NCBI RefSeq assembly: GCF_988243305.1
Contig: NZ_OZ547136.1
Length of the DNA: 64,000 nt
Reading direction: 5' to 3' (one strand)
Within the stretch, counting starts at the first letter, position 1. Each line of letters opens with the position of its first letter. The notes under the pieces are model-generated. The model did not search any database and was not told the DNA's origin. It saw nothing but the letters and a program-made list of their open reading frames with translations. This document shows positions 22,130-47,104 of this stretch, piece after piece. Both the position numbers and the translations under genes were made by a program.

Positions 22130-23332
22130 ATGGCAGTATTGACGGATACGAAAGCAAGACATATCAAACCTGATGACAAACCATTGCCCCATGGGGGAAT
22201 TACCGGACTGACCCTTCATCCTTCTTCAGTAAAGGGGCGGGGGAAATGGGTTTTTCGTTATGTAAGTCCGGTGACACAAAAAAGACGTAATGCTGGATTG
22301 GGAACTTACCCAGAGGTCAGTATTGCTGAAGCTGCACGTACTGCCCGGATAATGCGAGAGCAACTTGCTGCAGGTGATGATCCTCTGGAGATTAAAAAGG
22401 CTGAATCTGAGAAAGTCGCTATCCCAACATTTGCCGATGCAGCCAGGCGTGTACATGCAGAACTGTCTCCTGGATGGGAAAATCCAAAGCATGTAAGGCA
22501 GTGGTTATCGACGCTTGAGAATTACGCGTTTCCTCAACTGGGAGCAAAAACGCTGGATTCGATTACGGCTGCGGACGTGGCAGAAACACTGCGTCCAGTC
22601 TGGTTAACCTTATCAGAAACGGCAAGCCGGGTTAAACAGCGCATTCATGTTGTTATGCAGTGGGGATGGGCGCACGGTTTTTGTGTAGCAAATCCTGTTG
22701 ATGTGGTTGACCATTTGCTTCCTCAGCAGACAAGAGGACGTGATGAACACCAACCCGCAATGCCCTGGAGGCAGTTACCGCTTTTTGTGGCGACCAGTGT
22801 GTATACCGATGAACCTTATAATGTTACCCGCGCACTGTTATTAATGGTGATACTTACAGCAACTCGCTCGGGCGAAGCCAGGGGAATGCGCTGGGCTGAA
22901 ATTGATTTTCATAAGCGGGTATGGACTATACCTGCAGAAAGAATGAAAGCTAGGCTACAGCATCGTGTTCCTTTATCCCGGCAGGCTATTTACATTCTGG
23001 AAAATATACGTGGCCTGCATGATGAACTGGTGTTCCCTTCACCCAGAAAGCAGCAGATCCTTTCCGATATGGTGTTGACAAGTTTTCTGCGTAAAAAGAA
23101 AGCCGTCAGTGACATTCCGGGGCGAGTTGCCACGGCACATGGTTTTCGCTCAACATTCAGGGACTGGTGTAGCGAACAGGGGTATTCGCGGGATCTGGCG
23201 GAAAGGGCGCTCGCTCATACGCTGAAAAATAAGGTTGAGGCGGCATATCATCGTACTGATCTACTGGAGCAGCGTGTACCGATGATGCAGGCATGGGCGG
23301 ATTATGTGATGTCTCAAATTGTGAATAAATAA
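22130..23332 (+). CDS. P4-type tyrosine integrase
   Basis: 400-aa ORF with arm-binding-type N-terminus and C-terminal catalytic region (HGFRSTF ... LAH ... Y) as in P4/CP4-57-type integrases. Confidence 0.85.
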   Translation: MAVLTDTKARHIKPDDKPLPHGGITGLTLHPSSVKGRGKWVFRYVSPVTQKRRNAGLGTYPEVSIAEAARTARIMREQLAAGDDPLEIKKAESEKVAIPTFADAARRVHAELSPGWENPKHVRQWLSTLENYAFPQLGAKTLDSITAADVAETLRPVWLTLSETASRVKQRIHVVMQWGWAHGFCVANPVDVVDHLLPQQTRGRDEHQPAMPWRQLPLFVATSVYTDEPYNVTRALLLMVILTATRSGEARGMRWAEIDFHKRVWTIPAERMKARLQHRVPLSRQAIYILENIRGLHDELVFPSPRKQQILSDMVLTSFLRKKKAVSDIPGRVATAHGFRSTFRDWCSEQGYSRDLAERALAHTLKNKVEAAYHRTDLLEQRVPMMQAWADYVMSQIVNK

Positions 23333-30902: not shown

Positions 30903-33900
30903 TTGGAAGTAGAAATGTGGGATGGTGGCTTACAAGAACAGGAAGTATTGGCTATCGAGAAAATAAAAGCTGCTTTTTCAGTCAACGTATCTAAGCCTGA
31001 CAAGCCTTTCCGTAGCGGTTCAATTAGTGAGCAGCTAAAAAGCTATGGTTTTATCGGCAATGAAATGTTCCCTTGGAAAGGTTATGCAGGTTTTCGATTT
31101 GTTGAGGCAAAAAAAGAGGGGGAATTCGATTTAGTTATTGTAACACACTGCAACGTGATCATTGTTGAACTGAAAGACTGGAACCATCAGCCTGTAACCG
31201 CACGCGGAGATACTTGGTTTAAAGGCGATAAGAACATGGGGCGCTCGCCAGTAAGCGTGACTCGTAGCAAAAAATTCATGCTGGACAAAAAACTCAAGCG
31301 TCTGGTAGACCGTTTTACGAACAAAGGCTATATCCCGATTGTTCATTTTTTTGTTGTGATGACCGGCAATGCAGATTTCAGCGCGCTGCCGGAGGAACAA
31401 CGGCGCCATACGATCTCGTTAAAAGATTTCCTGAAGTTTGCCGATCGCGGGAGCTTCAATAACTATTTCAAACCGCACCCAGCTACCAAGGTTCTTAACA
31501 AGGATTTCCATCTTTTCGATGATTTGTTCCTAGGGCCTCAGACGGCACCAAAAGCCTTGAGAGTTAATGGCTATGAAGCTAATGATATGATTTTCGAACA
31601 TCCTAAAAAGGTGTATCGAGAATATCTGGCAAAATCTGAGATATCAACGAACAGCGAAGCGCTACTCAGAGTATGGAATTTTAGAAATATAACGGGAACG
31701 AAAGCGAATACCCCGGAAGGACGAGCTCAGATTGTTTCACGTGAGCGCGAAGTGTTACAGCACATCAATCACCAGAATCGTGACCTGTATAACCACTGTC
31801 TCAGGTCTTTGACGAGTTTTCAGAAAGACGAGGTGACGGCCGAGTATAGCGAAGTCTACGAAGTTCCGCCGGGTCATGTCCGGTTTAATGAGTTTATCGG
31901 AAAATATGGTAAGAACTTTTCTGATATGGACCGCTTGAATGTGGTGAAACTGCTCATTGCAAAGTTTAGTGATCTCCATGAGATGAAAATTGCGCACAGG
32001 GATGTCGCCGATCACAGTCTGTGGATTTCACCTTCAAAAGAAGTTGCTCTTTCGAACTTTATTTCGGCTTACCACCAGCCAGCCGGAACGGTTGGCGATT
32101 ACCGTAAGCTTTTATCCGTAGGTGCAGTCCACGTAAAAGACATGCTTGATAAGGGCGAGCTTACGCCTTTTCAGCAAGATGTTCATACTCTGGGCCTTGT
32201 CGCCTGGCACTTATTTAGCGGTATGCGCATGTCGCCAAAGAGTCTGGAGAAAGTACAGGACAACATGCTAAACAGCCAGCACTGGTATTCATCTGTATTA
32301 CGGGATGCCGTTGCCGCAAAATTCACTTCTGCAACAGAATTCTTTGATGCCCTGAAACAAGCCGAACCTGCTGGCAAGGATATTCCAACATTTGATGATA
32401 CTGAGCTTGACCCTTACCGACATGCTATCAATCACGCTCGTCAATACCCGGAAGACGATGGCTTTCAGTTTCAGGTCGAAACAGTCGACAAAGAAGTCTA
32501 TATCTCGAAAGGAAGGCTCGTGAAGGCTTGGCTGAATGTTGGGGGACAGGGATACGATCCGTCAATTAATTTCCAGGTTCTGAAGTTTTTAAAGCAGGTT
32601 GAGCGGCTTTCTTCAGTTAAAACAACGTATCTACCTCAAATTCGTGAATTCGGTATCGCATCAAAATCATCAAGCCTATATATGGTCACGGATCAGGTAC
32701 AGGGAGAAACCTGGGATAAAATAGCGGTCCCCGATGATGAAAAAATCGACCTCATTGGTAAGTTTGTCGCCGCCGTTGAGCACTTACATGGTCTGGGTGT
32801 TTCTCACGGGGACATCCACCCTGGCAATGTGATATTTGAGACACAGAGCCGTTTGCTTTTTCTCATCGATATCCCCGATTTTTCACCGTCCGGTGACGAA
32901 CCTAAAAATCACAGTTACAGCCCTGAATACATTGATAATTGTACTTCTTTTGAACGTGACAACTATGCAGTGATGAAGATGTCCTGCGAGTTGCTAGGCA
33001 TGTCATGGGGGCTGGAATCAGACATTTATCCGACAATCGCGAATGCTATCCGAGCAGAGCTGGAAGATCCGGTTTTTGGGTTTAAGGATTTAGGCCGCTT
33101 TAAAAAAGCGATAGATAGTAATGACCTGGTGCCAGAACAAGACCTGATAGAGATTACTGCAGGAAATGCCGATGAAATAATCTCTATTCTGCCTGATAAC
33201 GGGCATCTGTATGTCAAAGTTAAGTCAAATCCTAAAGCGCCAGCTGAAGTAAATGTGACTTTCTCTGGGATTGGTGGCAGTTTTACTGCGGTGTTCAACA
33301 AAGATCAGAAGACGCTGGTTCATGGCTTCAGGCCACGGGCTCGCGTCACAATTCGTAAGCAAGATATTGATGAAAGCCAGTTCGAAATTGATACTGGCAT
33401 CAAGATTATTCCCGGCAGTCCGCAGGATCTGTCGGCGTTGACAGTATTGCTTAATGAAGAAGAATCTTTTGCGCGGGCAATCGAGTTGATTGCCGCAACT
33501 GAAGATGTTCAGGTACAAGAGCCACTTACGCTTCAGCTAAAAGATACCTTTGCAAGGCTTGATAAGCAGACGCTTGAACCTTCTTTAAGAGAAGTGCTGG
33601 AAATCCCAACAGTGAAACTGTGGCGCGCCATTCTGGATACTGAAACAGAATCTTATCCAAACATTGAAATCAGCGGTGAAGTGGTCCCGGTTGCAGATGC
33701 TCATGGAGAGCTTCTTCTCCCTTACTCTGCTGATGTTGATCCACTCGGTGCTTTCAGAAGTAGTGATGAAGTCGAAGCCTTACAGGTCGATCAGGAAGGT
33801 GTTGAGCGATTTATTGGTGAAGTGTCACTTAAGAAGTCAGAGCTCAAAGAGATTCGTCTTGTCAAAGTTAGTTCAGCAGCCTTCAAGCTGAAGGATTCTG

Positions 33901-35873
33901 ATATTGTCTTCTTCCGTACAAGGCCGACTCGTGCATCTTATCAGAAACGTAAACGCGCACTGGAACGTCTCCTAGATCGAGAAAGTGTGCTGCCTGACTT
34001 AATTGACTTGTTCGATCCATCCTGCAAACAGGCGGCTCAAAATTATGGTATCACTCTCAGCGATACCGATTTTGCCAGATACGACCGTGAAGATCAGCAC
34101 GGAAACAAGATCAGTCTGAATGAACAGCAAAGAAAGGCGTTTAACAAACTGGTCAATAATGGCCCTCTCTCCCTGCTTCAGGGGCCACCGGGGACCGGTA
34201 AAACCGAGTTCATCGCGGCCTTTGTTCACTACCTGATCGAGAAACAGAATACCAAACGCATTTTACTGGTCAGCCAGTCACACGAGGCTGTGAATACAGC
34301 GGCCGAGCGTATCAGAAAGCATTGTTCCCGGCTTGGTACAGAGTTGGACGTTGTCAGGTTCAGCAACCGAGAGGGAGCCGTTTCCCCTGGCTTAAAAGAT
34401 GTGTACTCACACGCAATCACAACAGAGAAGCGCGAACTCTTCAATGCTGAAATTAAGTACCGTGTTGAAGCATTGAGTGAAGCTATTGGTCTGGAGCCGG
34501 GATTTATTTCGGGTGTTGTTCTTGCAGAGCTCAATTTGTTCAGACAAATCGATCACCTTGAGAAATTGCTCTATCAGGTTAACAATTTAACGGATTCAAA
34601 TGAGAGCAATGAACTGAAAGATATTGCAGTCGAACTCGATTTTTCCATCCGCTCTAAGCTGAGTCAGGAGTATGGGATTAACTTGGACAATGGCGTGAAG
34701 GTCTCAGCAGCAAAAGACATTCTGATTTCCAAGCTATGTACAGAGTATGGTGTCAGACCTGATGAGGCAAGACGAGTAAAAGCATTAGCTAAAATATCCC
34801 GTGATATGCAGGATGCTATGTCGGGAGAGCGAGTGAACCTGGACGAGTTTTATTCGCGCTCCAGGCAGTTAGTGGCTGGCACATGCGTTGGTATTGGACA
34901 AGGGCACATTGGCATTCAGGAGAATATCTATGACTGGGTGATTATTGATGAGGCGGCGCGCTCGATTTCAAGTGAGCTGGCCATTGCAATGCAGTCAGCC
35001 CGGCGTGTCCTGTTGGTGGGTGACCACATGCAGCTTCCTCCATTGTACTCAGATGCCCACAAGGCGGCATTAGCGAGGAAGCTGGGTATCAATAACTCCC
35101 GCACTGAAATTGACGAGGTATTACGAAGTGACTTTGCCCGAGCCTTCAACTCTGCTTATGGTGCGCAGACGAGTGCAGCTTTGATGACCCAGTATCGTAT
35201 GGCTCCACCGATTGGTAATCTCGTATCGAAGACGTTTTATGACGGGAAGCTTCTGAATGGAGTACGGGCAATTCCGGATGTCTATCAGCAAGCTCCGGAA
35301 GCGTTACGTAGCGTTGTAACCTGGCTTGATACTGCTAATCAGGGCCACCGAGCACATCATCTTGAAGATCGCGGAACAAGCATTTACAACCGATGTGAAG
35401 CTGACGAGATTATTTCTGTTCTTAAACAGGTGTCAGAGAATGAAGAATTTGTCGCTAAGCTTTCAAAACTTGTTAGCAAAGATGAAGCCGCTATCGGCGT
35501 GATATGTATGTATGCCGAACAAAAGCGGTTACTCCGTCAGAAATTCAATCAGGAAATCTGGAGCGAGGGATTTAAGGACATTGTTAAAATTGACACTGTT
35601 GACAGTTATCAGGGAAAGGAAAATCGGATCATTATCCTGTCACTGACGCGTTCGGATAAGCAGCATAGCCCAGGTTTCTTACGCGTTCCAAACCGTATAA
35701 ATGTCGCGATGTCACGCGCAATGGATCGACTGTTGATTGTGGGTAATGCCGATATCTGGAAGGGAAACAATAAAGAATTGCCATTAGGCTACGTTGTAAG
35801 TTATATGGCTGAGCGAGGTCAGGAAGCTGGATACAGGTTCCTCTCTGCTCAGCAGGGAGGCAAAAAGAAATGA
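30903..35873 (+). CDS. Giant multidomain protein: NERD-like nuclease region, two protein-kinase-like regions, UPF1-like SF1 helicase (candidate defence effector)
   Basis: 1656-aa ORF; aggaga SD 6 nt before the TTG start (alternative ATG at 30915); FDLVIVTHCNVIIVELKDW; IAHRDVADHSLWI and VSHGDIHPGNVIF...LIDIPDF; helicase motifs GPPGTGKT, VIIDEAARS, LLVGDHMQLPP, VDSYQGKE, RINVAMSRA. Confidence 0.8.
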   Translation: MEVEMWDGGLQEQEVLAIEKIKAAFSVNVSKPDKPFRSGSISEQLKSYGFIGNEMFPWKGYAGFRFVEAKKEGEFDLVIVTHCNVIIVELKDWNHQPVTARGDTWFKGDKNMGRSPVSVTRSKKFMLDKKLKRLVDRFTNKGYIPIVHFFVVMTGNADFSALPEEQRRHTISLKDFLKFADRGSFNNYFKPHPATKVLNKDFHLFDDLFLGPQTAPKALRVNGYEANDMIFEHPKKVYREYLAKSEISTNSEALLRVWNFRNITGTKANTPEGRAQIVSREREVLQHINHQNRDLYNHCLRSLTSFQKDEVTAEYSEVYEVPPGHVRFNEFIGKYGKNFSDMDRLNVVKLLIAKFSDLHEMKIAHRDVADHSLWISPSKEVALSNFISAYHQPAGTVGDYRKLLSVGAVHVKDMLDKGELTPFQQDVHTLGLVAWHLFSGMRMSPKSLEKVQDNMLNSQHWYSSVLRDAVAAKFTSATEFFDALKQAEPAGKDIPTFDDTELDPYRHAINHARQYPEDDGFQFQVETVDKEVYISKGRLVKAWLNVGGQGYDPSINFQVLKFLKQVERLSSVKTTYLPQIREFGIASKSSSLYMVTDQVQGETWDKIAVPDDEKIDLIGKFVAAVEHLHGLGVSHGDIHPGNVIFETQSRLLFLIDIPDFSPSGDEPKNHSYSPEYIDNCTSFERDNYAVMKMSCELLGMSWGLESDIYPTIANAIRAELEDPVFGFKDLGRFKKAIDSNDLVPEQDLIEITAGNADEIISILPDNGHLYVKVKSNPKAPAEVNVTFSGIGGSFTAVFNKDQKTLVHGFRPRARVTIRKQDIDESQFEIDTGIKIIPGSPQDLSALTVLLNEEESFARAIELIAATEDVQVQEPLTLQLKDTFARLDKQTLEPSLREVLEIPTVKLWRAILDTETESYPNIEISGEVVPVADAHGELLLPYSADVDPLGAFRSSDEVEALQVDQEGVERFIGEVSLKKSELKEIRLVKVSSAAFKLKDSDIVFFRTRPTRASYQKRKRALERLLDRESVLPDLIDLFDPSCKQAAQNYGITLSDTDFARYDREDQHGNKISLNEQQRKAFNKLVNNGPLSLLQGPPGTGKTEFIAAFVHYLIEKQNTKRILLVSQSHEAVNTAAERIRKHCSRLGTELDVVRFSNREGAVSPGLKDVYSHAITTEKRELFNAEIKYRVEALSEAIGLEPGFISGVVLAELNLFRQIDHLEKLLYQVNNLTDSNESNELKDIAVELDFSIRSKLSQEYGINLDNGVKVSAAKDILISKLCTEYGVRPDEARRVKALAKISRDMQDAMSGERVNLDEFYSRSRQLVAGTCVGIGQGHIGIQENIYDWVIIDEAARSISSELAIAMQSARRVLLVGDHMQLPPLYSDAHKAALARKLGINNSRTEIDEVLRSDFARAFNSAYGAQTSAALMTQYRMAPPIGNLVSKTFYDGKLLNGVRAIPDVYQQAPEALRSVVTWLDTANQGHRAHHLEDRGTSIYNRCEADEIISVLKQVSENEEFVAKLSKLVSKDEAAIGVICMYAEQKRLLRQKFNQEIWSEGFKDIVKIDTVDSYQGKENRIIILSLTRSDKQHSPGFLRVPNRINVAMSRAMDRLLIVGNADIWKGNNKELPLGYVVSYMAERGQEAGYRFLSAQQGGKKK

Positions 35874-37306
35874 TATCTGATAACAAAGTTACCTATCATG
35901 AGGTTGACTTCCTGCTGCCAGCACAGAGGTTTAACATTCAGTTTTCCTATGTTTCCCAGAAGGGGCTGCCATTTATCCGGGAGTTTGTGCTGAGACTTGT
36001 TCATGTAGCTTCGATGAGCAAAGCACAAATAGCAACCTATTTCGGCCTGACCCACCGTGAGACAGAGGAGGCGATTTCCGATCTTGTGCAGCGTGGCGAA
36101 TTGACGCTCTCCTCAGACGGCAGACTGGCCTTAACAGACAAATCAAATGGCTATTTTTCAGAGGTTGGCGAGATACCGCATCTTTCAACTATTCAGGACA
36201 GTGGCTGTACCTTATCCTTTGATTTAGCCACATTTAGTTGCTTCAGCAACCAGGCTTTTCAGGACCACTGGAGGGGAGGGGTAACATTAAAGGTTGATGA
36301 CAACAACATTTCTCAAAGTGAGAAACTGGTTGAGAAGCACTTTCAATACCAGTTTAATCAAATCCTGGATAAAGGTTACCTGTCTCACCTGCAGGTTCAG
36401 GTCGGAAAAGAACAACCTTCTATCTATACCGTTAATTCTGTTAATAAGCTGCGGCAAATACCACTCCGTTTAACAACGGAATTTAAAATGGATAGCGATG
36501 GTAAGGCTGTCGAGCGTGAAGACTATGAACAGTTAAATAGTTCGGAATGTGTTCATGAGTTAATGGCTGTTGAGATAGCCAGGTTATCACGGCATAACAA
36601 TACCATGAGTATTTTTAAGGCCATGCAATCCATTAACGATGACCTTACGCTTAAGCTGTTTGACTCTAAAACGAATCGACTTAATCCGTTGTTTATCAAA
36701 GATATGCAAGCACTGGAAGAATACTCGTCCTCAGGCAGAACGACTTTTTTAGGTCCGGTTTATTCTAAAAACAACTGGGAAAAGCTGCAGAAAGCTCTGG
36801 CACCAGCGCTCAATCAGCGTATCAGAGATAAAACTGATTATGGAGGTAGCCCGTTCATCTGGGTGGCACCATCAGATCCCTACTGGTCAAAAAGCATTCG
36901 ATTTATCTCAAGCCTGAGCAATTTTCTTAGCAAGTCGGCTACGAAGGATAAGCAGCTGTATAAACCGGTGCTGTACGTACCTGTCCGGGATGCAGCTGAT
37001 GCTCGGGTTGCCAGACAGTGGAAGTATGAACTTGGGCAATTCCATGAGTACGCTAAAGGACTAGTTGAGGGGCTGTTAGATGGTAATGTTGAGATCCTTC
37101 ATCTTGAGGATGAGTTATCTGCCGTTATCTATCATATTTCTCAACCCGAAATATTGCCTGTAACGATGCCACTGGGCTTTATCACAACGAACAAAGAAAC
37201 GGTTAAGATTATTGGTACTCTGGTTACTGAATATATCAAAGGCACCACTGGTTTTGATAAGTTTCATGACTGTGGCGCAATTTCGGCAATGATTAAGAAA
37301 GGTTGA
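35870..37306 (+). CDS. Hypothetical 478-aa partner protein with possible N-terminal winged-helix region
   Basis: Start overlaps the upstream stop (ATGA); no PLD HxK(x)4D motif seen. Confidence 0.7.
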
Positions 37307-37461
37307 GCTGTTGGAACAGGAGGTATGGGGCATGTTTGCGTATTTTTATGGAAAGAAATAACCCAATGACGGCGTTACTCTCCAACTGGGTTGACGCGTG
37401 CTGCCTGTTAATGGCTCCGCTGAATGATGCCCTATACCGTTATGTGATGAACACCCGCCTG

Positions 37462-37720
37462 GGAACCATCCACGGCACGTCGGTCGGCGAACTGCTGGCG
37501 TGGATCAAAGAAGATGAAAACCCTCGCAAAGGCGAGATGGTGCTGATTATTGAAGGCCATAAAGCCCAGGATGACGAACTGCCCGCCGATGCGCTGCGTA
37601 CGCTGGCGCTGTTGTAGGCTGAGCTGCCGTTGAAGCAAGCGGCGGCGTTGGCGGCAGAAATCCACGGAGTGAAGAAGAATGCGTTGTATAAGTATGCGCT
37701 GGAACAGCAGGGGGAATAAG
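37462..37720 (+). pseudogene. 3'-terminal fragment of an rsmI-like gene with an in-frame stop
   Basis: ...[77 protein letters not shown] resembles the recalled RsmI C-terminus; upstream part of ORF 37303..37617 is unrelated. Confidence 0.55.
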
Positions 37721-38218
37721 CCCCTGCTGCCGGTTTTGCCGGGTGGCGCTTGCGCCTTACCCGGTCTGCTCATTGGGACAAGCGTTTAGTTAACGGGCAC
37801 CGCCTCAAACACCAGCGTTTCCAGCGGCTGCAACGTAATCACCGTCGCGTTTTTATACTCAACGGGCACGGTTTTATTGCTGCCGTATACCGCTTTCAGA
37901 CTAAACTGCGCCACGTCTCCTGTCGGTATTTCGAAATCCTTAGCCAAATCCAGATAGTAGGCCTGTGGCTTATCCGATGGGTTGCGCAAACCGAGAATGG
38001 CTTTGTCTTTGCTCCAGGATGCCCAGCCGTACACGGCAAGCGCCGTTGGGTCGCCGCCAATCCAGTGGGTATCAACCAGCACGCTGGCATTTTCCTTCGA
38101 CCATTTTGCAGCCTTCGCCAGCGTATCCCACTTCACCTTGTTCAGCATGGACGGGGTAATATACTGAACCGCCCCGGGAATCCTGGAGACTAAACTTCCT
38201 GAGAAAGAGGTAAACAGG

Positions 38219-38545
38219 ATGACTAAAAATACTCGTTTTTCCCCCGAAGTCCGTCAACGGGCAGTCCGTATGGTTCTGGAAAGTCAGAGCGAATATGACT
38301 CACAATGGGCGACAATTTGTTCCATTGCTCCAAAGATTGGCTGTACGCCGGAGACTCTGCGTGTCTGGGTTCGCCAGCATGAGCGGGATACCGGGGGCGG
38401 TGATGGAGGGCTCACCACCGCTGAACGTCAGCGTCTGAAAGAGCTGGAACGTGAAAATCGTGAACTGCGCCGCAGTAACGATATCCTTCGCCAGGCTTCC
38501 GCTTATTTTGCGAAGGCGGAGTTCGACCGCCTCTGGAAAAAATGA
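38219..38545 (+). CDS. IS3-family transposase OrfA (copy 1)
   Basis: 108-aa HTH/leucine-zipper OrfA ([19 protein letters not shown]...). Confidence 0.85.
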
Positions 38546-39432
38546 TGCCACTGCTGGATAAGCTGCGTGAGCAGTACGGGGTCGGACCGCTATGCAGCGA
38601 ACTGCATATTGCCCCGTCAACGTATTACCACTGTCAGCAACAGCGACATCATCCGGATAAACGCAGTGCCCGTGCGCAGCGCGATGACTGGCTGAAGAAA
38701 GAGATACAGCGCGTATACGATGAAAATCACAAGGTATACGGTGTGCGTAAAGTCTGGCGTCAGTTGTTACGGGAAGGTATCAGAGTGGCCAGATGCACTG
38801 TGGCACGTCTCATGGCGGTTATGGGACTTGCCGGTGTTCTCCGGGGTAAAAAGGTCCGTACGACCATCAGCCGGAAAGCCGTTGCCGCAGGCGACCGCGT
38901 AAACCGTCAGTTCGTGGCAGAACGACCTGACCAGCTGTGGGTGGCTGATTTTACTTACGTCAGCACATGGCGGGGCTTCGTCTATGTGGCGTTCATCATT
39001 GATGTGTTTGCCGGATACATCGTGGGGTGGCGGGTCTCATCGTCCATGGAAACGACATTCGTGCTGGATGCACTGGAGCAGGCGTTATGGGCCCGTCGAC
39101 CGTCCGGCACGGTCCATCACAGTGATAAAGGTTCTCAGTATGTATCGCTGGCCTACACACAGCGGCTTAAGGAAGCCGGATTACTGGCATCAACAGGAAG
39201 TACAGGCGACTCGTATGACAACGCGATGGCGGAGAGCATCAATGGTCTTTACAAAGCGGAGGTAATACACCGTAAGAGCTGGAAAAACCGTGCAGAAGTG
39301 GAACTGGCCACACTCACGTGGGTGGACTGGTATAACAATCGACGATTGCTGGAAAGGCTGGGCCATACTCCTCCGGCAGAAGCAGAAAAAGCTTATTATG
39401 CTTCCATCGGAAACGATGATCTGGCAGCCTGA
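38542..39432 (+). CDS. IS3-family transposase OrfB, DDE integrase core (copy 1)
   Basis: 296-aa ORF overlapping orfA, typical programmed-frameshift arrangement. Confidence 0.85.
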
Positions 39433-41001
39433 GTTCACAGATAAAACACTCTCCAGGAAACCCGGGGCGGTTCATACAGCTCCTGCAGCTGGGTGCCGGT
39501 CGCGAAGTAGCTCCAGACCTGATCGGCAAAGTCGCTGTCCGTTTGCACCTTCTCTAACCCGTAATAGGCATTCTCGGCGCTGACTATCCCGTGGTACATC
39601 AGCGAGTTCAGCGGGAACAGAGGGCCTTTACGGACAATGGAGCGGTACGTCTCGGCATCGCGGTAGGTCATCCACTGCTGCACCGGCGTACCGGAACCAT
39701 ACAGGTTGATGTCATCTCCCTGACGCCAGATAGAATCAGCGTAGAACAGCCAGGACGGGCTGGCGTCGGTGCCGGTGGTCAGGTTGATAAACAGATTCGG
39801 GGTTGCGCTGCGCATATTGTGCAGCAGGGCGATTGATGCATCGAAATCTGAGGCGAACGAGCTGCCTTTGATATGCGAACTGGCGTTACCCATCCCGTCG
39901 AGTTTAAACGAGGTGATGTGCTCGTTTTTGATAAGCTTGATGATCCGCTCATTGAAGTTTTTAAAGTAGTTCGCTCCCGACAGCGCCAGTTTGCCGTCCA
40001 CGGTTTCGAACCCATACTCTTTTGCATGCGAAACGCGAACGTCGCGCGGTTTGTTGTAGCCACCCCACGGTGAAAGCCATAGCCCAACGGAGCTGTGCAG
40101 GCTGTCGGCTTTCTCCCGTACTTTGCTAAAACCGTTTCTGAATGCCGTGCCAAATAGCCAGCGTCCGGTCAGATCGTCCCAGCCATCATCCAGCAGGAAG
40201 GCGTCCAGCGCCACGCCGCGGCCCGTAATGAACTCCTTGTTCCATTCGTCCATACGCCCCAGCACATCCTGTTCAGTGTAGGGAGTGAAAAAGCCGATAT
40301 CCATCCAGCTGTTGTAGTGCAGATAAGGCTTGTATGGGCGTGGACGTACGTCATTAATAAACTGGTTCACGCTGCGGCGCAGCTGGCTGGTTTCCGGGAA
40401 AGTGCCGAACCAGGTAGTAAAGCTGACCGGCGCCTCTGGCTGAATCGGCGTTTTCAGCTCTACGTTGAGATTGGTGGTGGCTTCATAGGCGTAGGTATTC
40501 ACGATCGGTTTATCCGGCAGGATAAAGAACGAGTCCGCAACGATCGGAGAGCTATTGATTGCGCCGTCTACGTAAGGGGCCTGAGACTGTTTTTGGGTCG
40601 GGAAGAAGGTGATTTTAGCGACGTCGCGCGGCTGCCCCACGGCGGCAATGGTGTAGCCGATGTTGGCGTATTTTCCCTTCACCAGGTTCAGCTTCACCGT
40701 GACGTTAAAATCCGGGTGCGTAAAGTCGATGACAATCGCGTTATCCTGCTTTTCGACGTGCTTGATTTTGAAATCCGCGGTGTGGATTTTACTCTCATCC
40801 GGCAGCGTCAGAAAGAACAACTCCTGCGGCGTGAGCGGATGGTTAGCCTTGTTGTCCTTCACCACGACCGTTGAGTTTGTATCATCAAACAAGAGGGCAA
40901 TATTGTCGTTATTGAGCGCGTAGTTTGCTGCCGCTGCACCATGAGAAACGCAGAGAGCCAGCAGTGAGAGAGTGAGCACTTTCTTCATCGGGGTAAGATC
41001 C

Positions 41002-42180
41002 TTATTTGTCATTTTTCAGCATTCGGTTAATGGACTGCTCCAGCCAGTAGCGCTGGGTGCCAAAATTAATCCGCAGGTAGTTTTCGCCGTTTTGTACATA
41101 GTGGCTGCCGTCTTCTATGACCACGCCTGCCTGCCGTGCGAAATGTTGGGTTAGCTGCGTTGCGCTACGCTCATCCGCGCTTACGTCTATCCACGCCAGA
41201 TACGACGATTCCGGGTTCATCATCTTCCACGCCGGGAAGTGGGTCTGGAGGGCATCCGCCAGATACCGGGCGTTGCCTTGCAGATAACCGTTCAGCGCGT
41301 CGAGCCAGGGCAGACCGTGTTGATAGGCCAGAATGATTCCCCATACCCCGAACAAATTGGGCGAGGTAATGGAGTTCTTCTCGAGCTGCTGGCGGAAGCG
41401 CTGGCGCAGCGAGTCGTCTGGAATCATGGAGTAGGAGGTTTTCAGCCCGCCCAAATTGAACGCTTTGTTGGGCGATGTGAGCACGATCAGGTTGTCCTGG
41501 GCGGCACAGCCAGAGGTGAGACAACTGGCGAATTTGCCATCCAGAATGTGTTCAGCGTGAACCTCATCGACCACCAGAATCGTGCCGTAGCGTTGACAGA
41601 GATCGGACACCTGGCGTATTTCTTTCTCGCGCCAGATCCTGCCGGACGGGTTATGTGGCGAGCAGAAGAACCACAGCGTTGGACGGTGGGTTTTGAGCTG
41701 TTCTTCTATCAGATTAAAATCAAGCTGATAGCGGTTTTCCTCCACGCGCAGCGGGTTAGCCAGTACCTGCACGCCCTGGCGCTGTGCCGCCATCGCAAAA
41801 GGATCGTAGACCGGCGTGTTCATCATCACGCTGTCACCCGGTTTGCAGAATGCCTGAACCGTGTAGTGCAGCGTGGATACGGTGCCGTAGGTCAACGTGA
41901 TCCACGACTTTTCCACCTCAACCTGATGACGTTTGCGCTGGAAGGCAATGACCGCGTCGTAGAATTCGTCAAAGCACCAGGTATAACCAAAGGTGCCGTG
42001 CTCCACGATGCGCCGGAAACCGTCAATCACCGCAGGTGGTGAGGTGAAATCCATATCGGCTATCCATAGGGGGATAAAGGACTCCGGGACGTCACCGAAA
42101 CGCGAGCAAACAAAGGTATGGTCCCATTTACGGCACTTATCATTTTGACGCTCAATGATTTTGTCGAAATCAAACATCAC
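41002..42180 (-). CDS. MalY/PatB-like PLP-dependent C-S lyase
   Basis: 392-aa ORF with aminotransferase class I/II signature (SPHNPSG ... SPNKAFN). Confidence 0.7.
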   Translation of the reverse strand: MMFDFDKIIERQNDKCRKWDHTFVCSRFGDVPESFIPLWIADMDFTSPPAVIDGFRRIVEHGTFGYTWCFDEFYDAVIAFQRKRHQVEVEKSWITLTYGTVSTLHYTVQAFCKPGDSVMMNTPVYDPFAMAAQRQGVQVLANPLRVEENRYQLDFNLIEEQLKTHRPTLWFFCSPHNPSGRIWREKEIRQVSDLCQRYGTILVVDEVHAEHILDGKFASCLTSGCAAQDNLIVLTSPNKAFNLGGLKTSYSMIPDDSLRQRFRQQLEKNSITSPNLFGVWGIILAYQHGLPWLDALNGYLQGNARYLADALQTHFPAWKMMNPESSYLAWIDVSADERSATQLTQHFARQAGVVIEDGSHYVQNGENYLRINFGTQRYWLEQSINRMLKNDK

Positions 42181-42188
42181 TCCTCCTG

Positions 42189-43796
42189 TTAAATTAAGGC
42201 TTCAATGCCGGTTTTGACGCTCTGTACCTGCGGTCCGATGATCACCTGCACGCTATGCGCATCAAGCATCACCACTGACAACGCGCCTGCCGCTTTCAGC
42301 GCCTGCTGATCGATAAGGCCCATATCTTTCACCACCAGACGCAAGCGGGTAATACAGTTATCAAGCGACTCAATGTTCTCTTTACCTCCGAGCGCACGTA
42401 GGATAAGCTCGTGATCGTATTTTGATTTTCCGCGCGCGCGGGTGTTCGCCTCGACGGCTTGCTGTGCCCCCTGAACATCCACCTCGCGGCCCGGCGTTTT
42501 GATGTTGTGTTTGAGGATGTACCAGCGGAAGACAAAGAAGTAGATGGCAAACCAGGCAATACCAACCGGGAACAGCAGATACCATTTGGTCGACATTCCC
42601 TGCATCACGCCGAAAATCAGCAGATCCAGAATGCCGCCGTCGGTATTGCCGATGGTCACTCCCAGCAGGGCCATTACCATCAGCGCCAGGCCAGACATGA
42701 CGATATGGAAGGCGTAAAGCGCGGGGGCGATAAACAGGAACAGGAACTCAATCGGCTCTGAAATACCGGTGACGACGGAAACCAGCACGCCGGAAAGCAG
42801 CAACCCCTTAATGACCGGCCGATTTTCCGGACGCGCGGTGCGGTAGATGGCGTAAGCCACGGCGGGTAAACCGAAGATAAAGGTCGGCATAAACCCTTGT
42901 GACAGAAACGCGGTAACGTGCGGGCTAAACGGCAGGCCGGCTTTGAGCTCGGCGTAGAAGATATTCAGCGCCCCGGCGACCTCATGGCCATTTACCATTT
43001 CAATGCCGCCTGCTGGGGTAAAACGCACCATCGCCAGCAGGATGTGGTGCAGACCAAAAGGTTTAAGCAGCAGCACGCCTACGCCGTAGAGGAAGGGGCC
43101 GAAAACGCTGGTGCTCTGGATAATATGCCCAATGCCCGCGATGCCCAGCGCGACGTATTCCCACAGCATGGGAATGAACAGACCCACCAGCGACAGGGTG
43201 AGCGCGGTAATAATCGGCACGAAACGAATGCCGCTAAAGAAGGCGAAGGCGTCATGCAGAACCGTGTCCTGAAAACGGTCATGCAGAAAATAGGTGATAA
43301 CCCCAACCACAATGCCACCTAATACCCCCATCTCCAGGGTTTGAATGCCCAGCACGATCGATTGTCCTACCTGTTTCATGGTGGCGGGGTCGGCAAGCTG
43401 GTGGGTAGCCGTCAGGTAATAATTAATGCTCATGTTCATCAGCATGTAGCCAACGAACCCGGCAAAGGCAGCGACCGCTTTGTTGCGCTTGGCAAGCCCC
43501 ATGGGGATCGCCATGGCAAACATCAGCGGCAGATAGGTAAAAGCAAAGCCACCGACCATAGCGATAAAGCCAAAGGTCAACTGGGTAAATTCGCCGCCCA
43601 GAAAGGGAAAACTAGTAATGGTGGAAGGGCTGGTGACTGAACTACCGATACCCAGCAGCAATCCCATAAAGGCAAGAAGCGAAACCGGGAACATAAAGGT
43701 TTTCCCCAGACTTTGTAAAAACTCCCATAATTTTGATTTAAAAGATTTTTTTTGTGTCATATAGGGCTCCTCGAATTTTAGGATAATGGAAGGCAC
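42189..43796 (-). CDS. PTS glucose/maltose-family EIICB component
   Basis: 535-aa polytopic ORF with C-terminal EIIB motif NCITRLR. Confidence 0.8.
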   Translation of the reverse strand: MPSIILKFEEPYMTQKKSFKSKLWEFLQSLGKTFMFPVSLLAFMGLLLGIGSSVTSPSTITSFPFLGGEFTQLTFGFIAMVGGFAFTYLPLMFAMAIPMGLAKRNKAVAAFAGFVGYMLMNMSINYYLTATHQLADPATMKQVGQSIVLGIQTLEMGVLGGIVVGVITYFLHDRFQDTVLHDAFAFFSGIRFVPIITALTLSLVGLFIPMLWEYVALGIAGIGHIIQSTSVFGPFLYGVGVLLLKPFGLHHILLAMVRFTPAGGIEMVNGHEVAGALNIFYAELKAGLPFSPHVTAFLSQGFMPTFIFGLPAVAYAIYRTARPENRPVIKGLLLSGVLVSVVTGISEPIEFLFLFIAPALYAFHIVMSGLALMVMALLGVTIGNTDGGILDLLIFGVMQGMSTKWYLLFPVGIAWFAIYFFVFRWYILKHNIKTPGREVDVQGAQQAVEANTRARGKSKYDHELILRALGGKENIESLDNCITRLRLVVKDMGLIDQQALKAAGALSVVMLDAHSVQVIIGPQVQSVKTGIEALI

Positions 43797-43873
43797 TACC
43801 CGGTTTAAGGACGCGCCTTCATATTTGTGGGACTTATAATTATTTTGAAATATTGAGGTAATACGCTGTTGGA

Positions 43874-44278
43874 TCAGGCCTCCGCCGGTAGCCGTAATCG
43901 ATTTGCCGAGCCGCAGACGGCGATTTTGCTTCTGACCACCTCTTTCATGGCGTCCATGCCAACCCGCATGTAAAAGCGCGGATCGTTGCTCTGCTGATTT
44001 TCAGCAAACCAAGCTTTGATAGCGTCAGAGAAGGCGATCTTCAACTCGGTTGCAACGTTGACTTTGCAGACGCCTGGCCCAATGGTGCGACGAACATACT
44101 CATCCGGCACATCGCTCGCCCCATGCAGCACAAAGCGGGCAAAACAAACGGCATAAATTCCATTTGTTTTGCCCGCTTTGTGCTGCCTCACCATTTCTGT
44201 CAGATGTTTCACTTTCCTCTCCAGTTCAGATTGCTGCGATATTAATCTTTCGTTTTGTTTCAGTTGATACTGCGTCAT
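43874..44278 (-). pseudogene. Fragment resembling the C-terminus of a class II tagatose/fructose-bisphosphate aldolase
   Basis: C-terminal portion ([11 protein letters not shown] ... [13 protein letters not shown] ...) is aldolase-like; N-terminal portion unrelated. Confidence 0.45.
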
Positions 44279-44460
44279 GGTGAGATAAAAATAAAACGAA
44301 AGATAATAGTTTTCTGATCTGATTCACAAAAGAAACATAATGAAAGTCAGTGAAACGAGAGTAGCTTGCGCCAATGGGCAAGGTGGGCTTGCATTTGCTT
44401 AATAGAAAGGCGTTAATAGGCAAAACGAAATGAAACGAAAGTTTTACGAAAGGACTTACT

Positions 44461-45285
44461 ATGAGTAATACCGACGCTTCAGGTGAGAAGCGAGTGACAG
44501 GCACCAGCGAGCGACGAGAACAGATCATTCAGCGTCTGCGACAGCAAGGGAGTGTGCAGGTTAACGATCTGTCGGCATTGTATGGCGTATCTACTGTGAC
44601 GATCCGCAACGATCTGGCGTTTCTGGAAAAGCAGGGAATCGCTGTGCGTGCCTATGGTGGCGCGTTGATCTGCGATAGCACGACGCCGTCAGTCGAGCCA
44701 TCAGTGGAAGACAAAAGCGCACTGAACACCGCGATGAAACGCAGCGTTGCGAAAGCTGCCGTTGAGTTGATTCAGCCAGGTCATCGGGTGCTCCTCGATT
44801 CCGGGACCACCACTTTTGAGATTGCTCGTCTGATGCGCAAGCACACTGACGTAATTGCGATGACCAACGGTATGAACGTGGCTAATGCGTTGCTGGAAGC
44901 GGAAGGCGTTGAGCTGCTGATGACCGGCGGGCATTTGCGCCGTCAGTCGCAATCTTTTTACGGCGATCAGGCTGAGCAATCGCTGCAAAATTACCACTTC
45001 GATATGCTGTTTCTTGGTGTAGATGCGATCGATCTGGAGCGCGGCGTCAGCACGCATAATGAAGATGAAGCCCGTTTAAACCGCCGGATGTGCGAAGTTG
45101 CGGAACGGATCATCGTGGTCACCGATTCCAGTAAGTTCAATCGTTCCAGTTTACATAAGATCATTGATACTCAACGTATCGACATGATCATTGTTGATGA
45201 AGGCATTCCTGCGGATAGTCTGGAAGGCTTGCGAAAGGCTGGGGTTGAAGTGATTCTGGTCGGGGAGCTCGCGTCTTCGCTGTGA
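44461..45285 (+). CDS. agaR: DeoR-family transcriptional repressor, AgaR-like
   Basis: 274-aa ORF with N-terminal DeoR HTH and sugar-phosphate-binding C-terminal domain; identity to AgaR is from memory. Confidence 0.7.
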
Positions 45286-45291
45286 TTCACT

Positions 45292-45320
45292 ATGCCCGAT
45301 AAACAAGCGTTATCGGGCAT
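45292..45320 (+). terminator. Hairpin downstream of the agaR-like gene
   Basis: atgcccgataa-caagcg-ttatcgggcat palindrome. Confidence 0.4.
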
Positions 45321-45347
45321 AATACAACTTAATGTATGAAGAGAATA

Positions 45348-46598
45348 TCAGGCCACCGGTGCCGGGTTAAACACTGCCAGTTGGTTATGCAATCCCCATT
45401 GATCCGAGAGGGTTTTCTTCTTCCCGCTGGCGACGTCGAGAATAAAGTGGAACAACTTCCAGCCCACCTCTTCAATGGTTTCTTCGCCGGTAGCGATAGT
45501 GCCTGCGTTAATATCCATTAAATCAAACCAGTGGTTCGCCAGCCCGGTGCGGGTCGCCATTTTAATGACGGGTACCTCCATCAGGCCGTACGGCGTACCA
45601 CGGCCGGTCGTAAACACTTGCACGGTGATACCCGAAGCCACCTGTTGCGTGCCACAGACAAAATCTCTGGCTGGCGTCGCGGCGTAAATTAATTCGCGTT
45701 TAGTCGGGTGTTGACCGGGCGACAGCACTTCAACAATTGCGGTTTTACCCGATTTAGCAATGGAGCCGAGTGCTTTCTTTACCACGTTGGCGAGGCCGCC
45801 CTTTTAGTTGCCCGGCGAAGGGTTGGCGCTGCGGTCGGTTTTGCCCATATCGGGATAGTTATCGTATCAGGCCATCTCTTCGAGCAGACGCCTGCCCACT
45901 TCTTCATTGATGGCGCGTGGCGTTAACAGATGAATGGCGTCGCGTACTTCAGTGACTTCGGAGAACATCACCGTTGCGCCGCAGCGCACCAGCAGGTCAG
46001 AGTCGTAGCCGACAGCGGGGTTAGTGGTAACGCCGGAGAACGCGTCGCTGCCACCGCACTGCATGCCCACCACCATCACTTCGCCACCGAAGTTTGGGTT
46101 CAGCGCAATATTATGGATGGTGCGAATTGGCACCACGGCGGCCGGTACATTAATCGCTACGCCACAGCCGTAGAGGTGGTTCAAGTCGACCACGCCGTCG
46201 ATGCTCAGGTATTTCGGCAGCAGGTCGCGTTCGATAATTTTAACCACGTAGTCCTCAACGTCTGCCATGCAGTGCACGCTGGTGGTAATACCCAACAGGT
46301 TTTTGGTGCCCACGCTGCCGTCGGCGTTGCGGTAACCTTCAAAGGTGTAATCTTCCTGCGGCTGCTGCGGCTCCGGCACTTTGGTCGCCCGAGGCAGGGT
46401 GTTAAGCGGCGGCGCTTTCGGTAGCGTGACCGTGGATTCGTCGATCCAGCTGCCTTTGGCGACATCGCGTACCGTGTAACCGATAGCGAATGATTTCACC
46501 ATTATGAGGAAGGTTGTTATCCCTTTTCTGGCGTATTCGTCATTCCATTCGTATCCCCGGTACCGGATGTTTATATCGTACAGTGCCGGTGCTGGCAT
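45348..46598 (-). pseudogene. garD-like galactarate/altronate dehydratase, decayed
   Basis: Two ORFs (45867..46598 and 45348..45785) match successive parts of a GarD/UxaA-family protein, with a frame break and apparent N-terminal and internal losses. Confidence 0.65.
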
Positions 46599-47104
46599 GC
46601 TTTCCTGCAGGTCTGCACCGGTTTAACAAACAAAACTTAACAGAGTCTGAAGGAGTAGTATTCCGTGCAAATAACCGAAGCGTTACTTTCAGAGCCGAGA
46701 GATATCTGGCGTTTTGTTCAGCAGGCGGTGGACCACTGGCCGCGTCTGCTGGCAGTCCACTTCACGCGTCATTCGACCAGAGTAAATATTGATGATTACT
46801 AGATTCGTGTATTTTATCAGGCATTTTACTTGCGAATAAATCCCCTTGCTATCCAGCGAAACCACACAGGTAGCTATTACCATATGTGGTAATACACTAG
46901 TTACAGGAAAAATATGCAAGTTCCGCAATACGTTGTTTGTTGCTCCTTAGCCAGGATCTTTTCTTCCATGCGAGATATGACAACAATTTTGAGGAAGGAT
47001 GTTCGTAACTGGTTAGACTGGCCCCCTGAATCTCCAGACAACCAGTATCACTTATTTAAGTGATAGTCTTAATACTAGTTTTTAGACTAGTCATTGGAGA
47101 GCAG

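Follow-up and report, generated by a model that had tools for sequence, protein, structure and literature searches.

The closest described system to the locus studied here is the pathogenicity island PAI-CFT073-serX of Escherichia coli CFT073, which spans positions 1,127,702 to 1,241,149 of NC_004431 (PMC7545054). Two chromosomal gene orders also bear on it. In E. coli K-12, the native order is garD-prlF-yhaV-agaR-kbaZ...kbaY...agaI-yraHIJK-rsmI (b3128 to b3146). In the Enterobacter cloacae complex and Yokenella regensburgei, the aga-rsmI region reads ...agaS-kbaY-malX-malY-ENT-rsmI-lpoA, where ENT encodes a secreted protein of 629 amino acids (aa). We analyzed a 64-kb window (all 64,000 nucleotides taken from contig NZ_OZ547136.1 of assembly GCF_988243305.1). 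Between positions 37465 and 46515, it holds broken pieces of rsmI, kbaY, kbaZ and garD together with an intact agaR gene, malX- and malY-like genes and an interrupted ENT gene. This locus is very probably a relic of a foreign enterobacterial chromosome that is carried in an island and has been partly converted to E. coli sequence. The broken fragments are ordinary island debris and not a rearrangement of the strain's own genes.

The CFT073 module that corresponds to our locus occupies NC_004431 1,135,994-1,142,842, inside PAI-CFT073-serX. The island in the window has its tyrosine-integrase gene at 22130-23332, after dgcT, and the order of dgcT, integrase and backbone is the same in strain 190693 and CFT073. 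The first base of the CFT073 integrase gene, 1,127,702, is the published start of PAI-CFT073-serX (PMC7545054); therefore, the locus belongs to a described pathogenicity island. The two islands share the integrase site next to dgcT and the left-hand backbone. They also share a scrap of an insertion sequence (IS) of the IS66 family, the rsmI and garD remnants (rsmI' and garD'), ENT, malY and agaR, in DNA that is 93 to 97.5% identical, and the end junctions and the W351* stop codon in garD' are the same in both. However, PAI-CFT073-serX lacks a pair of genes for 1,656-aa and 478-aa proteins that the window carries at 30903-37306, and its downstream cargo differs. A tRNA scan of the window found no tRNA gene; the serX end would fall beyond it. 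As the integrase sits at the dgcT end, either serX lies beyond the window or the integrase has another attachment site.

We found the 9.26-kb stretch, collinear and 99 to 100% identical apart from the IS, at the same site in about 312 complete E. coli genomes. A second island variant, 93 to 97.5% identical, is present in about 190 to 200 further genomes, including CFT073 and UM146. Altogether, about 510 of the 5,426 complete E. coli genomes carry the module. A literature search on agaR and garD pseudogenes in genomic islands returned only irrelevant papers. The feature is already known in kind: it lies in a known island and is annotated as pseudogenes in hundreds of RefSeq genomes.

A preliminary description, made from the DNA letters alone, had listed an rsmI-like 3' fragment with an in-frame stop, a C-terminal class II aldolase fragment, an intact AgaR-like DeoR regulator and a multiply broken garD-like gene. 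All four are present. The homologies to rsmI, kbaY, kbaZ, agaR and garD are directly visible, with tblastn E values of 1e-11 to 0, and the same pseudogenes have been called independently by NCBI annotation of identical loci in other genomes. Compared with the K-12 region by tblastn and blastn, rsmI' shows 88% protein identity and 85% DNA identity. It lacks the N-terminal 203 codons, and it has an in-frame TAG (37615-37617) at a place where K-12 has Gln. The aldolase fragment ('kbaY) matches KbaY residues 205 to 284 over 43895-44134 (82.5% aa identity; E value of 1e-41; Pfam F_bP_aldolase), and its DNA is 77% identical to K-12 kbaY and 81 to 86% identical to kbaY of Enterobacter, Lelliottia and Kosakonia. 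The AgaR protein of the window matches K-12 AgaR at 268 of 269 residues and has five extra C-terminal residues. It carries the Pfam HTH_DeoR and DeoRC domains and scores 463 bits against the NCBIfam AgaR equivalog NF040755 (cutoff, 260 bits) and 575 bits against PRK09802. As for garD', roughly the first 57 to 72 codons are missing, 219 bp are deleted internally, and in-frame stops W351* and K372* are present. The K-12 neighborhood of these genes, as given in the preliminary description, agrees with the K-12 map. The phosphotransferase system (PTS) EIICB gene, the MalY-like lyase gene and the IS629-disrupted secreted-protein gene that it placed among the fragments were all located.

We searched for relatives of ENT in one genome of each bacterial species and mapped the neighboring genes. 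The order kbaZ-agaVWEFA-agaS-kbaY-malX-malY-ENT-rsmI-lpoA is native in Enterobacter quasihormaechei, Enterobacter cloacae, Enterobacter hormaechei and Enterobacter soli, in another Enterobacter, and in Y. regensburgei. More than 20 other Enterobacteriaceae have kbaY-ENT-rsmI with garD-agaR-kbaZ upstream. The arrangement kbaY-(malX-malY)-ENT-rsmI-lpoA occurs in at least 12 Enterobacteriaceae species, with garD-agaR-kbaZ upstream where the fetched stretch extends there. When reversed, the native Enterobacter order is the exact order and orientation of the island genes. The proteins of the Enterobacter cloacae complex and Y. regensburgei regions are 91 to 96% identical to those of the island; unlike the island copy, these regions are intact and at their native site, and their agaR and garD genes are only 77 to 81% identical to it. 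ENT is absent from all Escherichia species representatives in the genome collection.

DNA identities point the same way. The stretch from ENT through malY and malX to 'kbaY forms a single continuous 4.66-kb alignment, 86 to 87% identical to Enterobacter quasihormaechei, Enterobacter cloacae and Enterobacter hormaechei, and the block from rsmI' to the 3' part of ENT is 81 to 83% identical to Enterobacter genomes. Overall, the copy is 77 to 85% identical to native E. coli and 81 to 87% identical to Enterobacter. Matches to rsmI across 5,424 E. coli genomes are bimodal: island copies are at least 95% identical (510 genomes), native copies are 84.6 to 86.5% identical, and no match in these genomes falls between the two classes. 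These comparisons argue that most of the copy is foreign and not a duplicate of host genes. The proposal of a decaying paralogous copy in the preliminary description is essentially right, with one refinement: there is a second, decaying garD-aga-rsmI copy, but it is mostly foreign (81 to 87% identical to Enterobacter) and not a host duplicate.

We then compared the island copy with the native E. coli locus. A check for a second aga/gar locus covered two island-bearing genomes, CFT073 and AMA1167, the latter with an island 100% identical to that of the window. In both, the native garD-prlF-yhaV-agaR-kbaZ...kbaY...rsmI-lpoA locus is complete and intact. In island-bearing records, agaR and rsmI each occur in two places. 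The island fragments follow one another as their K-12 counterparts do, in order and in relative orientation, and the agaR-kbaZ control region is 98.6% identical. Unlike the island, however, the native locus has intact genes, lacks malX, malY and ENT, and includes agaBCDI and usually the yra fimbrial genes; its flanking genes are only 77 to 86% identical to the island fragments. At the native locus of AMA1167 (sequence type 410-type), the yraJ usher gene is truncated by IS1 and yraH and yraI are missing, and CFT073 has no yra genes there at all.

Within the foreign segment lies a patch that resembles E. coli. From kbaZ' (the 5' remnant of kbaZ) through agaR, the DNA is 98.6% identical to K-12 over 1,125 bp and 77 to 78% identical to Enterobacter, and in sliding windows the patch is 92 to 100% identical to native E. 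coli loci. Its right-hand limit is a change point in garD' at 45774, where the mismatch rate rises from 4.1% to 17.1% (log-likelihood ratio of 17); beyond it, identity in the 5' part of garD' is about 80%, whether the comparison is with E. coli or with Enterobacter. Both the 71-bp spacer, in which prlF-yhaV is missing, and the 274-aa form of AgaR find their match at the native locus of strain MS7163, where this toxin-antitoxin pair is likewise missing. The CFT073 variant has the same patch with the same right-hand breakpoint; therefore, the patch must have been in place before the two variants diverged. We considered strong conservation as the cause of the 98.6% identity of agaR and rejected it, because Enterobacter agaR is only 77 to 78% identical in DNA and the identity extends over the intergenic region and synonymous sites. 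From this mosaic of identities, the patch is probably a conversion tract copied after capture from a host native locus of the prlF-yhaV-negative type. Natively, prlF-yhaV is missing between agaR and garD in about 130 complete E. coli genomes, and AgaR is 274 aa long in them. In genomes that do have prlF-yhaV, the insertion stops precisely at the final sense codon of agaR, which leaves AgaR with 269 aa.

The two island variants have decayed differently. The junction between the IS66 scrap and rsmI', the garD truncation point and W351* are common to both, and every other lesion differs. Window-type islands have lost the sequence from about kbaZ codon 23 to about kbaY codon 205 and carry the 219-bp garD deletion and K372*. 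In CFT073-type islands, malX is reduced to 81 nt, and a 5' piece of kbaY, a 3' piece of agaS and 290 nt of kbaZ are kept; agaR is frameshifted and has a 243-bp deletion, and garD' has E221* and a 1-bp deletion but not the 219-bp deletion. The lesions themselves are plain in the alignments. The different deletions and stop codons of the variants show that decay continues, and the pattern is that of a stepwise, lineage-specific erosion of a single captured segment. At the kbaZ/kbaY junction of the window type, the two arms of an inverted duplication are 93% complementary and separated by a 2-nt loop, which suggests that a snap-back or hairpin-mediated deletion made the junction. The junction creates a fused open reading frame (ORF) of 134 aa, KbaZ(1-23)::KbaY(205-286), at 43874-44278.

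IS elements have only minor roles in this region, one as a border scrap and one as a strain-specific insertion. The IS629/IS1203 copy (we took the name IS1203 family, equal to IS629, from annotations in other genomes) has 25-nt inverted repeats, overlapping orfA (38219-38545; 108 aa) and orfB (38542-39432; 296 aa), and a TAC target duplication of 3 bp at 38162-38164 and 39475-39477. When the IS is taken out together with one copy of the duplication, the 629-aa ORF is recovered exactly as it stands, uninterrupted, in strain 190693, and none of the 5,426 complete E. coli genomes has the junction between the IS and the secreted-protein gene. Therefore, the insertion is recent and private to this lineage. 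The IS66 scrap is 92 to 94% identical to ISEc23/IS66 tnpC in thousands of places and maps to about nt 700 to 790 of the 1,614-nt tnpC, so it is an internal piece and not an IS end. CFT073 shares its junction with rsmI', and the scrap is annotated there as an IS66 family transposase fragment. Such a scrap at the left border hints that an IS had a part in the capture or in trimming.

We weighed several other explanations. The preliminary description had suggested an IS-mediated rearrangement; in that case, the strain's own garD-aga-rsmI locus would have been moved, broken up and mixed with unrelated genes. The IS629/IS1203 copy, the IS66 scrap and an IS2-like element that begins at about 47014 of the window are indeed nearby. 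However, the interleaving that prompted this idea is the native order of Enterobacter and Yokenella chromosomes, the flanking fragments share only 77 to 86% identity with E. coli genes, and the island-bearing genomes examined still have an intact native locus. Moreover, the arrangement is 100% identical, IS aside, in hundreds of genomes, with some 312 complete E. coli genomes collinear at this very site, and the clean 3-bp duplication marks the IS629 copy as a simple insertion. The suggestion is thus unsupported, and we regard it as extremely improbable. An old duplication within E. coli, giving a true paralogue of the resident locus that diverged by decay, would fit the agaR region, whose identity to K-12 lies within E. 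coli diversity. Yet relaxed selection cannot give flanks that diverge by 15 to 23% around a central 1.6 kb at 96 to 100% identity, a level that holds even at its intergenic and synonymous sites, and native E. coli loci have no malX, malY or ENT, genes that stand at that very position in Enterobacter. The ratio of nonsynonymous to synonymous divergence (dN/dS) of ENT, 0.06 against Enterobacter, also indicates divergence under selection in a functional lineage, and we find a duplication of this kind very unlikely. As for an assembly artifact joining unrelated contigs, nothing but the presence of repeats (the IS copies) speaks for it, and the same junctions recur in more than 300 independently assembled complete genomes; we give it practically no credence.

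The patch could also predate the capture. The donor chromosome would then already have been a hybrid, for example, of an Escherichia-related lineage with an exchanged aga region, and there would have been no conversion within the island. Both variants share the breakpoint near 45774 and the spacer without prlF-yhaV, so the patch is old, and recombination at only 80% identity is rare. On the other hand, the absence of ENT from the Escherichia species representatives speaks against such a donor, and foreign sequence on both sides is the pattern expected of a conversion tract in a segment resident in E. coli. A hybrid donor is therefore unlikely in our view, although it deserves more weight than the alternatives above. 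Several observations count against the reading that we prefer, a foreign relic partly converted to E. coli sequence. No sampled species exceeds about 87% DNA identity to the foreign part (92 to 96% for the proteins), too little for any of them to be the donor, and rsmI' alone is about equally close to E. coli (85%) and Enterobacter (81 to 85%). The left end of the patch is deleted in both variants, so that the sequence shows neither how far the patch once reached nor which way the transfer went. The strain's own native locus would lie outside the 64 kb and is inferred from near-identical island-bearing genomes. Finally, a tract of about 1.6 kb (the 5' part of ENT and the 3' end of malY) is only 85 to 92% identical between the variants, with flanks at 96 to 100% and a synonymous divergence (dS) of 0.31 in ENT. 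One capture followed by simple decay leaves this divergence of 8 to 15% unexplained, which implies at least one further recombination with another foreign allele.

We propose the following history for the foreign relic. The stretch from 37458 to about 46500 would derive from a piece of a foreign enterobacterial chromosome, roughly 7.7 kb long and reaching from the middle of rsmI to the middle of garD. The donor order would have been garD-agaR-kbaZ-agaVWEFA-agaS-kbaY-malX-malY-(GH36-like secreted protein)-rsmI, and the captured piece would have become cargo of the integrase-bearing island next to dgcT, the same island as PAI-CFT073-serX. After capture, a native E. coli aga/gar locus without prlF-yhaV would have recombined homologously with the segment and overwritten a patch of at least 1.6 kb. 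Most of the aga genes would have been lost by deletion, which in this variant took out the stretch between kbaZ codon 23 and kbaY codon 205 and left the palindromic junction, and garD' would have gained its deletion and stop codons. In this strain alone, IS629/IS1203 would then have entered the secreted-protein gene. The direction and order of these events, and the mechanism of capture, are what we infer from the comparisons. The coordinates of the features are collected in Table 1.

Table 1. Features of the probable captured segment, with positions in the 64-kb window
Feature	Position	Strand	Remarks
IS66-family tnpC scrap, 86 bp, left border	37372-37457	+	Directly abuts rsmI'
rsmI' pseudogene	37465-37719	+	RsmI residues 204-286, last 83 codons only
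ENT gene, 629-aa secreted protein	37786-40988	-	IS-interrupted here; annotated "enterotoxin" or "alpha-galactosidase"
IS629/IS1203 (IS3 family), 1,310 bp	38165-39474	+	Splits secreted-protein gene
MalY/PatB-family pyridoxal phosphate (PLP)-dependent C-S lyase gene, intact	41002-42180	-	TIGR04350, Pfam Aminotran_1_2
malX-like PTS EIICB gene, intact	42189-43796	-	TIGR02004 PTS-IIBC-malX
'kbaY fragment	43874-44134	-	C-terminal 82 codons, class II tagatose-bisphosphate aldolase
kbaZ/kbaY deletion junction	44125-44186		30-nt inverted duplication, arms 44125-44154 and 44157-44186
E. coli-like patch, probable recombination tract	44143-45774		kbaZ', agaR, 71-bp spacer, ~435 bp of garD 3' end
kbaZ'	44143-44212	-	First ~23 codons of kbaZ
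agaR-kbaZ control region (P_Z)	44244-44444		Three AgaR-operator-like sites, predicted
agaR	44461-45285	+	Intact 274-aa ORF
garD' pseudogene	~45339-46515	-	5'-truncated, border 46485-46515

ENT had no match in Pfam, NCBIfam or PDB sequence searches. Its AlphaFold model has a predicted local distance difference test (pLDDT) score of 90 and a predicted template modeling (pTM) score of 0.88, and consists of a beta-sandwich, a central (beta/alpha)8 barrel and a second beta-sandwich. The best Foldseek matches of the model were the GH36 alpha-galactosaminidase of Flavonifractor plautii and GH36 alpha-galactosidases (E values of 8e-25 to 1e-20). The three-domain layout is common to ENT, to this FpGalNase (PDB 9ayu, 8x1b and 9awt) and to the GH36 alpha-galactosidases, but sequence identity is only 10 to 14%, with TM-scores of 0.44 to 0.62. 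The motifs DDGWD (267-271), K362-x-D364 and R422-x-G-D-D426 are invariant in the ENT alignment; we take them to resemble GH27/GH36 motifs. In more than 40 Enterobacteriaceae species, ENT keeps its place between kbaY and rsmI, and distant relatives occur in Verrucomicrobia, Planctomycetes and Gemmatimonadetes. A GH36-like fold fits this conserved siting beside genes for N-acetylgalactosamine (GalNAc) and galactosamine (GalN) catabolism. Judging from the predicted model, "enterotoxin" is probably the wrong label for what would be a GH36-like glycosidase with a link to the GalNAc/GalN pathway. The label matters for virulence-gene screens that count ENT as a toxin. A literature search on galactosaminidase, the aga operon and GH36 found nothing about this protein, and a search by four RefSeq protein accessions found no paper.

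The MalY-like protein scores 364 bits against the TIGR04350 PatB family (cutoff, 340 bits) and is 89 to 92% identical to Enterobacter orthologues at the same position. The malX-like protein, for which the NCBI-annotated start would be 43760, scores 723 bits against TIGR02004 (cutoff, 632 bits) and is 95 to 96% identical to Enterobacter orthologues sited between kbaY and the MalY-like gene. We asked whether the gene is the classical CFT073 "malX PAI marker" and rejected this, as CFT073 retains only 81 nt of it; the classical marker is presumably a different locus.

Other parts of the island were noted in passing. Directly upstream of the captured segment, at 30903-37306 on the plus strand, the 1,656-aa gene is of the NERD/AAA-helicase type, and the 478-aa gene has no Pfam match. 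The pair is IS-broken in strain E686. A "TOTE conflict system" primase pseudogene lies nearby, so the two genes may form an anti-phage defense pair. Farther downstream, at 48818-53423, there is a second captured metabolic module with genes for a DeoR-family regulator, a ribokinase-like kinase, a FucP-like permease and an aldose-1-epimerase-like protein, which presumably resembles the deoQKPX deoxyribose operon. A truncated, ilvN-like pseudogene for an acetolactate-synthase small subunit stands at its edge; here again, foreign chromosomal DNA is bordered by a broken housekeeping gene. Two short contigs from metagenome-assembled genomes, JAIJJM010000184.1 (labelled Collinsella sp.) and SFGN01000089.1 (labelled Lachnospiraceae), are 99 to 100% identical to the island module. 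They are almost certainly mis-binned E. coli contigs.

The end pieces rsmI' and garD' are functionless. The core between them, in genomes where ENT is free of the IS, may be a working unit controlled by AgaR that comprises agaR, P_Z, malX, malY and the glycosidase-like gene. The AgaR operator consensus is reportedly that of Ray and Larson from 2004. A pattern based on it has three matches in the window, where 0.13 would be expected by chance, and all three are at 44244-44444. In Enterobacter loci, the same pattern occurs only at agaR-kbaZ and upstream of agaS. A scan of 43700-44520 for promoter and terminator consensus sequences found no excess over shuffled sequence.

The core might thus be more than debris. 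By this account, the kbaZ-kbaY deletion would have produced a compact AgaR-controlled operon for harvesting GalN/GalNAc glycans, made up of agaR, P_Z and malX-malY-ENT, and only rsmI' and garD' would be junk. All four genes are intact in reference copies of this variant, and the kbaZ start and the operator-like sites stand directly upstream of the co-directional 'kbaY-malX-malY-ENT. Because operator-like sites occur only at agaR-kbaZ and upstream of agaS in Enterobacter, malX-malY-ENT would also be read from an AgaR-controlled promoter there. The fold of ENT, like that of a GH36 alpha-galactosaminidase, and its dN/dS of 0.10 between the island variants agree with such a function. However, the low dN/dS may reflect divergence before capture, and the 30-nt junction palindrome could impede transcription or translation. 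The unit is also dispensable, since CFT073 has a frameshifted agaR and has lost nearly all of malX, and ENT is knocked out in the window. We consider a functional core possible but doubtful. A more specific version, which we hold to be still less likely, is that malX-malY and the GH36-like protein in IS-free genomes form a GalNAc/GalN-responsive operon under the AgaR-controlled kbaZ promoter. This small operon on the island would release amino sugars from host glycans, for example, mucin O-glycans or blood-group A structures, and import them, and ENT would be a founding member of an unrecognized alpha-galactosaminidase-like family with a conserved place beside the aga genes throughout Enterobacteriaceae. 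If this is true, a widely propagated "enterotoxin" annotation is wrong.

For the question raised by the preliminary description, the broken genes are the usual debris of a pathogenicity island and matter little. The locus is a worked example of an island that carries a chunk of another genus's chromosome, with truncated housekeeping genes at both ends and a patch recombined from the host locus. The second, near-identical agaR can mislead read mapping, typing of the multilocus sequence typing kind and regulon predictions. About 9% of complete E. coli genomes have a second agaR, or a remnant of it, and a second set of AgaR operators, which could alter the regulation of the aga genes.

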